Origin: a virus | Lineage: Duplodnaviria > Heunggongvirae > Uroviricota > Caudoviricetes | Strand: one strand, 5' to 3' | DNA: 7,100 nucleotides | IMG/VR virus record: IMGVR_UViG_2684622619_000011 | Shown here: one piece after another, positions 3,001 to 6,000 of the stretch | How the letters are laid out: each line of letters begins with the position of its first letter | Numbering within the stretch: position 1 is the stretch's first letter | Made by a program: the position numbers

Positions 3001-6000
3001 TTGCCACCGGCGCAGAGTGCCGATGCGGCCCTGCTGCCCGCGTTGCGTCTGGGGAATGCCCGGGCAGATGATCTGGTGCGCAATAACGGAATAGCGGCCA
3101 ATGCGGTGGCACTGCATAAGGATCACATTGTCGGGCATATGTTTCTTATCAGCTACCGTCCGAACTGGCGCTGGCTGGGGATGCGGGAGACCGCAGCAAA
3201 AAGCTTTGTCGATGAGGTGGAGGCGGCCTGGTCGGAATACGCCGAAGGGATGTCTGGCGAGATCGACGTGGAAGGAAAACGCACGTTCACGGAATTTATC
3301 CGTGAAGGTGTGGGCGTTCATGCGTTTAACGGCGAAATCTTTGTGCAGCCGGTCTGGGATACGGAAACCACGCAGTTATTCCGTACGCGTTTTAAAGCCG
3401 TGAGTCCGAAACGGGTGGACACGCCAGGACACGGTATGGGGAACCGTTTTCTGCGGGCCGGGGTGGAGGTCGATCGATATGGCCGTGCCGTTGCGTACCA
3501 TATCTGTGAGGATGATTTTCCTCGCTCCGGGAGTGGACGATGGGAACGGATCCCGCGTGAACTTCCCACCGGGCGTCCGGCCATGCTGCATATTTTCGAG
3601 CCGGTGGAGGACGGGCAGACCCGTGGGGCCAACCAGTTTTACAGCGTCATGGAACGGCTGAAGATGCTCGATTCCCTGCAGGCAACACAGCTTCAGTCGG
3701 CCATTGTGAAAGCCATGTATGCAGCGACGATTGAAAGTGACCTTGATACCGAAAAGGCCTTTGAATATATCGCCGGTGCGCCGCAGGGGCAGAAGGATAA
3801 TCCGCTTATTAATATTCTGGAGAAGTTCTCCAGCTGGTATGACACGAATAACGTGACGCTGGGTGGTGTCAAAATTCCGCACCTTTTCCCCGGGGATGAT
3901 CTGAAACTACAGACTGCGCAGGATTCAGACAATGGATTTTCGGCGCTTGAACAGGCGCTGCTGCGGTATATCGCCGCCGGTCTTGGCGTTTCCTACGAAC
4001 AGTTGTCCCGTGATTACTCGAAGGTCAGTTATTCAAGTGCCAGGGCCTCTGCCAATGAGTCGTGGCGCTATTTTATGGGGCGGCGAAAATTTATTGCGGC
4101 CCGGCTGGCCACGCAGATGTTTTCCTACTGGCTGGAAGAGGCACTTCTTCGGGGGATTATCCGTCCGCCACGGGCGCGTTTTGATTTTTATCAGGCGCGA
4201 TCAGCCTGGTCACGGGCAGAGTGGATTGGTGCCGGAAGAATGGCCATTGACGGGCTCAAGGAGGTTCAGGAATCGGTGATGCGCATTGAGGCCGGACTGA
4301 GCACGTATGAGAAAGAGCCGGCGCTGATGGGCGAGGATTATCAGGACATTTTCCGCCAGCAGGTCAGGGAATCTGCAGAGCGGCAAAAAGCCGGACTCTC
4401 ACGTCCGGTGTGGATAGCGCAGGCGTATCAGCAGCAGATAGCGGAGAGTCGCAGGCCGGAAGAGGAGACAACACCCCGTGAGACGTAATCTTTCACACAT
4501 TATTGCCGCAGCATTCAATGAACCGCTGCTTCTGGAGCCCGCCTATGCGCGGGTTTTCTTTTGCGCGCTCGGGCGCGAGATGGGGGCAGCAAGTCTTTCG
4601 GTACCACAGCAGCAGGTACAGCTTGATGCTCCCGGAATGCTGGCTGAAACGGACGAGTACATGGCCGGAGGTAAACGACCGGCCCGTGTTTACCGGGTGG
4701 TGAACGGTATTGCTGTACTGCCGGTGACCGGCACGCTGGTGCACCGGCTGGGGGGTATGCGGCCATTTTCCGGAATGACAGGCTATGACGGCATTGTCGC
4801 CTGTCTTCAGCAGGCAATGGCGGATAGCCAGGTGCGGGGCGTACTGCTGGACATTGACAGTCCGGGCGGGCAGGCCGCCGGCGCGTTTGACTGCGCTGAC
4901 ATGATTTACCGCCTCCGTCAGCAGAAGCCGGTCTGGGCACTGTGCAATGACACGGCCTGTTCTGCAGCCATGCTGCTGGCGTCGGCCTGCTCCCGACGGC
5001 TGGTTACCCAGACATCCCGTATCGGCTCCATTGGCGTGATGATGAGCCATGTCAGCTATGCCGGTCATCTGGCGCAGGCCGGTGTGGATATCACGCTGAT
5101 TTACTCAGGGGCGCACAAGGTGGATGGCAATCAGTTTGAAGCCTTACCGGCAGAGGTTCGCCAGAACATGCAGCAGCGCATTGATGCGGCGCGCCGGATG
5201 TTTGCCGAAAAAGTGGCCATGTTTACCGGTCTGTCTGTTGATGCCGTCACGGGAACAGAGGCCGCCGTTTTTGAAGGTCAGTCCGGCATTGATGCCGGGC
5301 TGGCGGATGAATTAGTCAATGCGTCGGATGCCATCAGTGTGATGGCCACGGCGCTGAACAGTAATGTCAGAGGAGGCACTATGCCGCAATTAACTGCAAC
5401 GGAAGCCGCCGCGCAGGAGAACCAGCGAGTGATGGGGATCCTGACATGCCAGGAAGCGAAAGGACGTGAACAGCTTGCCACGATGCTGGCAGGACAACAG
5501 GGCATGAGCGTTGAACAGGCCCGGGCGATTCTGGCCGCGGCGGCACCGCAGCAGCCGGTGGCATCCACGCAGAGTGAAGCCGATCGCATTATGGCGTGTG
5601 AAGAAGCGAACGGTCGTGAACAACTGGCGGCAACGCTGGCGGCGATGCCGGAGATGACGGTGGAAAAAGCCCGCCCGATCCTGGCTGCTTCACCGCAGGC
5701 GGATGCCGGACCCTCACTCCGTGATCAGATCATGGCACTGGATGAGGCAAAAGGGGCTGAGGCGCAGGCTGAACAGCTGGCTGCCTGCCCGGGAATGACT
5801 GTGGAGAGCGCCCGGGCTGTGCTGGCTGCGGGATCAGGTAAGGCAGAACCGGTCTCTGCATCCACAACCGCCCTGTTTGAACGCATCATGGCGAACCATT
5901 CACCGGCTGCGGTACAGGGTGGCGTGCCACAGACGTCAGCAGACGGTGATGCGGACGTGAAAATGCTCATGGCCATGCCATGAAGTCAGTGCTGACCATC

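Follow-up and report, generated by a model that had tools for sequence, protein, structure and literature searches.

In phage lambda, the scaffold is removed by proteolysis and the portal is trimmed. Interactions of the lambda proteins Nu3-Nu3, Nu3-portal B, C-Nu3 and Nu3-E have been reported, as has a requirement for Nu3 in the incorporation of portal B (PMC3224144); scaffolding proteins are described as sharing, in general, a coat-binding domain at the C-terminus that is helical or a helix-turn-helix (PMC11565965). In phage 21, the corresponding genes are genes 5 and 6. GenBank record M81255 places gene 6, with its own ribosome-binding site (RBS) and ATG, in frame within gene 5, labels it an analogue of lambda Nu3, and marks three repeat_regions inside it, a "Tri1 box" (5542-5645), a "Tri box" (5682-5792) and a "Tri3 box" (5823-5936), each with the remark "function unknown; putative". 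The newer complete phage 21 genome, OL657228, calls the gene 6 product "scaffolding protein", and the Gifsy-1 record points to phage 21 gp5 in Swiss-Prot, with the text "Contains: Scaffold protein GP6". Here we describe a phage 21-type C gene with a threefold repeat in its scaffold part, carried by a 7,100-nucleotide (nt) stretch of a caudoviricete genome (IMG/VR record IMGVR_UViG_2684622619_000011), referred to below, in its entirety, as the window.

The Tri-box repeat and the nested scaffold gene

The C open reading frame (ORF) of the window is homologous to gene 5 of phage 21 and to lambda C. It aligns with positions 4572-6077 of M81255 at 98.6% nt identity over 1506 nt with no indels, and megablast against GenBank phages returned 98.6-98.7% full-length identity to phage 21 (M81255, OL657228) and close relatives. 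Ten amino acid (aa) substitutions, among them A373V in unit 2 and R469H/I470F in the tail, plus the start codon separate the window protein from phage 21 gp5. With an offset of 94 and no indels in this part, the three Tri boxes map to window positions 5448-5551, 5588-5698 and 5729-5842, where they coincide with the domains that a hidden Markov model (HMM) assigns to units 1, 2 and 3, respectively. The three-unit repeat is already known, having been annotated in phage 21 since the early 1990s. The original prediction, made from the window sequence, is thus not supported as a discovery, given the Tri1, Tri and Tri3 annotation in M81255 and the presence of the three-unit type in Gifsy-1 and in 1864 of 5426 complete Escherichia coli genomes, i.e., about a third.

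The repeat itself is real. The units, of ~35 to 40 aa each, are all in frame and end in ILAA, ILAA and VLAA (Table 1), with start-to-start spacings of 53 and 47 codons, in agreement with the earlier reading of the sequence. Pairwise BLOSUM62 local scores between units were 99, 82 and 91, compared with shuffle means of 21-23 (standard deviation 4-5), and none of 2000 composition-preserving shuffles reached the observed scores (z 12.5-18.5). The repeat is therefore not Ala/Gln low-complexity background, the alternative that the original prediction had itself named. When an HMM was built from the three units, it recognized three domains, no more, in the 501-aa protein (E 5e-28 to 7e-26) and a single one in lambda gpC (aa 357-399, E 5e-18), bearing out the statement that lambda has one copy of the motif. 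At the DNA level, identity between the units is 59-67% and synonymous sites are close to saturation (proportion of synonymous differences [pS], 0.64-0.74), which excludes an assembly duplication, as had been argued from the divergence of the units. Because of this divergence, DNA repeat tools see almost nothing here: Tandem Repeats Finder reported no repeat in the window DNA, and a DNA repeat search of the window gave nothing beyond short matches of 12-25 nt. As also proposed, the repeat sits in the scaffold (Nu3-like) part of a gpC-type protein, which is 62 aa longer than lambda gpC (501 versus 439 aa; ~60 aa in the first estimate).

The C-terminal tail that follows the units is not a further unit. 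It holds motifs conserved in the family, F(D/E)xFM...SP and LLMxxP, and for most of its length has a predicted local distance difference test score (pLDDT) of <50 in the AlphaFold 2 (AF2) model described below, in which it is disordered. A fourth unit at ERIMANH (aa 468) was considered and rejected, there being no significant likeness to the units (z ~0). This ERIMANH start in the tail (window 5878-5899, aa 468-474) looks like the unit starts DRIMACE and DQIMALD, and a 15-nt DNA match joins the three sites; the RIMA in the tail is particular to this variant, phage 21 having EHFMANH there.

Within the C-type gene, the matches of the protein to SppA-like NCBIfam models were all under their cut-offs, while the S49 domain was recognized by Pfam (Table 1). 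The scaffold region downstream matches PHROG families of head scaffolding and capsid assembly proteins. The nested gene is the homologue of phage 21 gene 6 and analogue of lambda Nu3, with a C-terminus in common with the protease; its product from Met302 (5381) is putative, as predicted from the start signal. Of the 15 homologues inspected, 14, among them lambda, have a Shine-Dalgarno (SD) sequence and ATG at the equivalent site just after the protease domain. In the exception (L041), a later Met was picked by the script, and the region upstream of that Met is without a clear SD. From the internal Met to unit 1 there are 12-14 aa in proteins with three or four units and 41-54 aa in those with a single unit.

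The nested start in lambda itself deserves comment. In NC_001416 (L003/L148), the RefSeq nu3 start is at 5132 (201 aa), with no evident SD, and phage 21-type genes read ATT (Ile) at that position. A GGAGG plus ATG at gpC Met310 (~nt 5345) of lambda aligns with the SD and ATG of the homologues, phage 21 gene 6 included. Judging from this alignment, the conserved nested start in lambda may be the downstream Met310 rather than 5132.

Table 1. Features of the window (positions counted from its first nucleotide)
Feature	Position	Strand	Details and basis
Unit 1, aa 317-354	5426..5539	+	RVMGILTCQEAKGREQLATMLAGQQGMSVEQARAILAA; starts RVMGIL, ends ILAA; HMM envelope aa 314-356
Linker 1, aa 355-369, Ala/Pro/Gln/Ser-rich	5540..5584	+	pLDDT ~60, no helix (AF2); pN/pS 0.29
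Unit 2, aa 370-404	5585..5689	+	RIMACEEANGREQLAATLAAMPEMTVEKARPILAA; starts RIMACE, ends ILAA; HMM envelope aa 367-406
Linker 2, aa 405-416	5690..5725	+	low pLDDT (AF2); pN/pS 0.27
Unit 3, aa 417-451	5726..5830	+	QIMALDEAKGAEAQAEQLAACPGMTVESARAVLAA; starts QIMALD, ends VLAA; HMM envelope aa 414-453
C-terminal tail, aa 452-501	5831..5980	+	alignments; not a repeat unit
C-type gene, S49 prohead protease fused to scaffold region, 501 aa	4478..5983	+	intact ORF, GTG start; phage 21 identity
Peptidase S49 domain, aa 146-293	4913..5356	+	Pfam PF01343, E 2.8e-35, 122 bits versus cut-off of 24.9
Shine-Dalgarno GAGGAGG, 4 nt 5' of internal ATG	5370..5376	+	sequence; putative gene 6 RBS in M81255 and OL657228
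Nested in-frame gene, 200-aa putative scaffold protein	5381..5983	+	M81255 and OL657228 annotation; PHROG matches
Small terminase gene	contains N run 504-553	+	ORF calls
Large terminase, two ORFs	723-1064 and 1015-2709	+	ORF calls
W-like gene	between large terminase and portal	+	ORF calls
Portal gene	2896-4488	+	ORF calls
Decoration gene	6020-6367	+	ORF calls
Major capsid gene, start only	6425-	+	ORF calls

Copy number and conservation of the module

To limit bias in collecting relatives, the protease domain alone (aa 1-300) was searched against public genomes and viral contigs, and the units were then counted downstream; a search with the 200-aa scaffold region gave mostly fragments, unfit for counting, and loci found via the protease domain were used instead. 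Among 100 distinct full-length proteins, 61 had three units, 26 had one, 10 had four and 3 had two, in a sample where phage-21-like sequences are over-represented, since the viral contigs with the best scores were retained. The three-unit proteins comprise the phage 21 clade, Gifsy-1 (70% protease identity) and prophages of Trabulsiella (81%) and Providencia (68%). Single-unit proteins are those of lambda, phi80 and prophages of Enterobacter, Kluyvera, Serratia, Erwinia and others, and the four-unit proteins form a clade of 538-aa E. coli prophage proteins with 72-75% identity in the protease part (members L135-L145 in IMG/VR and P0027; E. coli genomes H63-H70).

Nor are three units the rule among lambdoid gpC proteins, which would have made the window protein ordinary. 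Of the 5426 complete E. coli genomes, 3201 carry lambda-type single-unit genes and 105 the four-unit type; the latter had no megablast match (~85% identity or more) in a GenBank phage collection of 50,697 records. A HMMER search with the unit profile against 1.84 billion cluster representatives returned 414 proteins at E ≤0.001, and among the top 150 matches 53 of the 54 proteins of at least 380 aa were single-unit, so that one unit is the norm across the sequence diversity. The multi-unit state, by its distribution among these sequences, is a derived feature of one enterobacterial lineage. Two stand-alone metagenomic proteins of ~195 aa and non-enterobacterial origin (P0109 and P0223; the gene context of P0109 being a single contig of 897 nt) carry two copies of a diverged module, which suggests independent module duplications elsewhere.

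Lambda-identical gpC also turned up on low-coverage contigs, several of ~48.4-48.5 kb, in unrelated assemblies (L017, L019-L025, L028, L030, L031, L044-L057). These include assemblies of Kitasatospora, Pseudomonas, Shewanella, Oceanobacillus and Leeuwenhoekiella, an Akkermansia metagenome-assembled genome and Chromatium. Such contigs look like lambda DNA contamination or spike-in, not real prophages.

The triplication is old. Units of phage 21 and Gifsy-1 are most alike at corresponding positions (77% identity between first units, 80% between second and 60% between third units, all above the cross-unit values), and this positional orthology places the triplication before these lineages separated. 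Units 2 to 4 of the four-unit clade are 82-92% identical to one another, pointing to recent duplication or concerted evolution. Copy number has also gone down within the phage 21 clade, where variants without all or part of a unit were seen (L076, L104, L115, P0020, P0009 and P0021). Of those counted as two-unit, L076 has unit 1 joined to unit 2 within their common GREQLA stretch, L104 keeps the start of unit 2 only and L115 ends inside unit 3; in the two-unit P0020 the junction is at the AR position. For some of these variants, exact one-unit deletions with junctions in the GREQLA or AR sequence common to the units are as expected from unequal recombination.

Every copy is under constraint. 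In 62 distinct 501-aa genes, the ratio of nonsynonymous to synonymous differences (pN/pS) was 0.18, 0.20 and 0.18 for units 1, 2 and 3, compared with 0.15 for the protease domain and 0.27-0.37 for the linkers and tail. All three units are kept by purifying selection on the protein, as strong as that on the protease domain, and the motif residues EA.G.E, LA, A and L are kept in all units of all lineages.

Predicted structure and possible role of the module

The 200-aa nested protein was modelled by AF2 from a 25-sequence alignment. The model has three short helices per unit (pLDDT 74-82), with breaks at a conserved Gly and at a PGM(T/S) loop, and linkers at ~60; its predicted template modelling score of 0.27 means that no fixed arrangement between the units is predicted. 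In this model the units with their flexible linkers look like beads on a string. Pfam and NCBIfam scans gave no curated domain covering the unit. It was matched by PHROG families alone, those for head scaffolding, capsid assembly or head maturation protease. A helix-hairpin-helix assignment (PF00633) was rejected: it scored 15.3 bits against a cut-off of 24, for unit 3 only, and matched 1 of 23 units at E 0.0015.

We consider it probable that the Tri-box triplication of phage 21 genes 5 and 6 provides three anciently duplicated helical modules for multivalent binding of a head-assembly partner. The module would be the one conserved helical unit found near the C-terminus of every lambda-family gpC/Nu3 protein. 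Because an SD and ATG lie just downstream of the S49 domain (ATG at 5381), the three modules and the tail would be made twice, at the end of the 501-aa protease and as a 200-aa scaffold protein. Each module would be a small helical element that binds on its own, strung on flexible linkers. Going by the helical domains with which other scaffolding proteins bind coat protein at their C-terminus, we infer that the module most probably binds the major capsid protein within the prohead as it assembles. A phage 21-type chain would then offer three binding sites to the one of lambda, with a presumed benefit of higher avidity or of cross-linking neighbouring subunits, and the common C-terminus would deliver the protease into the shell.

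Several observations weigh against multivalent binding. The major capsid gene is truncated in this window, so the C gene cannot serve the head assembly of its own prophage. Rare two-unit derivatives (L076, P0020) indicate that three units may not be strictly required. No PDB sequence match to the unit and no solved structure were found; Foldseek against the PDB gave no match at E ≤0.001 with either the 200-aa or a 43-aa model, both small and of moderate confidence; and nothing in the PDB, Foldseek and hhalign searches connects the unit with a known coat-binding domain, whether by sequence, profile or fold. The units are predicted as three repeated small helical modules, in line with the earlier interpretation. 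Their exact helix boundaries are uncertain because the two AF2 models disagree on the first two helices: a single-unit model from a 3-sequence alignment, on which we did not rely, merges them, unlike the 25-sequence model. Finally, the short lead from the internal Met to unit 1 in multi-unit proteins (12-14 aa, against 41-54 aa in single-unit proteins) means that the extra units could partly stand in for a spacer rather than add sites. Taken further, this last point leads to an account in which the extra units are mainly a spacer or tether and the length from the protease domain or scaffold N-terminus to the last module and tail is what matters, the phage 21 lineage filling that distance with duplicated modules and lambda with a disordered linker of ~48 aa. 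The inverse relation between unit number and linker length fits such an account, as does the lack of any trace of a unit in the lambda linker on searching with the unit HMM. We nevertheless hold it to be unlikely: the units are constrained like the protease (pN/pS 0.18-0.20 versus 0.15) while true linkers are looser, the motif residues are retained in every copy and lineage, and the three units cover ~135 aa, far beyond the 48 aa of the lambda linker.

The modules might also be binding sites of another kind, self-associating or contacting the portal rather than the capsid protein. Tandem copies would in that case replace or strengthen scaffold oligomerization, or recruit portal and protease to an initiator complex. 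The lambda record lends itself to this interpretation, with Nu3-Nu3 multimers, the need of Nu3 for portal B and the C-Nu3 contact reported alongside Nu3-E (PMC3224144), and the module is common to the protease and the scaffold, which must co-assemble; the general precedent, in contrast, puts coat binding in C-terminal helical scaffold domains (PMC11565965), and we regard self-association or portal binding as a possible but rather doubtful function of the module. That the repeat is an artefact, whether of Ala/Gln/Glu-rich low complexity, of mis-assembly or of a DNA-level element such as regulatory sites, is extremely improbable. The region is indeed Ala-rich, and two CII sites found by pattern matching are given in OL657228 for the opposite strand of the gene, but the artefact reading is refuted by the shuffles (z 12-18), by the recurrence of the same three units in dozens of independent genomes and distant genera, and by a DNA that has diverged while the protein motif was kept, which implies that the protein, rather than a DNA element, is under selection.

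For the nested scaffold protein, multivalent binding of a partner is a plausible role, and a multivalent module, as in the original prediction, might alter how many capsid or portal contacts are made. More tentatively, and with considerable doubt, the number of Tri modules (1 to 4) might set scaffold valency, covalent repetition in phage 21 replacing the non-covalent scaffold oligomerization used elsewhere. If this were true, the family would offer a natural tunable series relating scaffold valency to T=7 prohead assembly and protease delivery. As a discovery, the three-unit repeat matters little, being a rediscovery of a feature long annotated and widespread in E. coli and Salmonella prophages. 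What the present analysis adds is the series of one to four copies, the selection on every copy and the conserved internal start signal, together with the recognition of a module for which PDB, Pfam and NCBIfam searches gave no structural or curated-domain description. With its near-constant partner proteins, the 1-4 copy series makes a reasonable small target for studying how scaffold and protease are recruited into lambda-family proheads.

The surrounding prophage and comparison with related systems

By ORF calls, the + strand of the window is a lambda-type head operon (Table 1), and the order portal, C, decoration protein, major capsid protein is that of the lambda gpC/Nu3 type, as also seen from the annotation of phage 21 and of the matching O157:H7-type record. 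The major capsid gene is cut short: its match to phage 21 gene 7 breaks off near 6675 and its ORF runs for 88 aa, to 6691, while from ~6673 another frame encodes a lambda gpV-like major tail protein (reading ...VKVTNV). The junction implies that E beyond this point has been deleted, along with the genes as far as V. In RefSeq, the matching O157:H7-type region is annotated as "major capsid protein, incomplete", followed by "phage tail protein", and ~300 complete E. coli genomes, the top matches mostly O157:H7, match at least 80% of a 701-nt query across the capsid/tail junction.

Compared with M81255, the large terminase region (723-2709) shows small indels clustered at 911-1165, and RefSeq labels the matching gene, 99.9% identical, "frameshifted". 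The split large terminase together with the capsid deletion shows the window to be part of a defective prophage, of the O157:H7 type. Within the small terminase gene, positions 504-553 consist of 50 consecutive N. Here the window exceeds the matching complete genome by 58 nt, and the run is therefore a masked stretch or gap, not real sequence.

Among described systems, phage 21 is the closest. Its genes 5 and 6 have the same 501-aa length, the nested start with its RBS and the three repeat regions in the same positions; the window gene lies in a defective O157:H7-type prophage, whereas phage 21 is a viable phage. The Gifsy-1 protein STM2605 and related proteins of Salmonella, Trabulsiella and Providencia have three units in the same order and in positional orthology. 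They are 498-501 aa long (491 aa in Providencia), share 68-81% identity in the protease part and have longer or different tails. The 538-aa clade (L136, P0027) belongs to the same family and has the same module, with four units instead of the three found here.

Lambda gpC/gpNu3 and the window gene have the same position, are 60% identical over the protease part and have in common the C-terminal module, the tail and the internal SD and ATG that follow the protease domain. The 439-aa lambda gpC has one module after a non-repeat linker of ~48 aa, whereas the window protein has three modules after a lead of 12 aa. The head proteins of phage 21 and lambda are otherwise collinear, 53-67% identical and of near-equal length (major capsid protein, 342 versus 341 aa; portal, 530 versus 533 aa; decoration protein, 115 versus 110 aa), the sole architectural difference being the scaffold part of C, with 201 versus 134 aa. 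Since the partner proteins are nearly constant, module number is not tied to an obvious partner difference. The helix-turn-helix at the C-terminus of P22 gp8 is a functional analogue only: hhalign of a 23-unit profile against P22 gp8 gave a probability of 1.7%, i.e., no detectable homology. Both are small helical elements near the scaffold C-terminus, that of P22 being present in a single copy on a protein without a fused protease and the module described here in three copies, on protease and scaffold alike.

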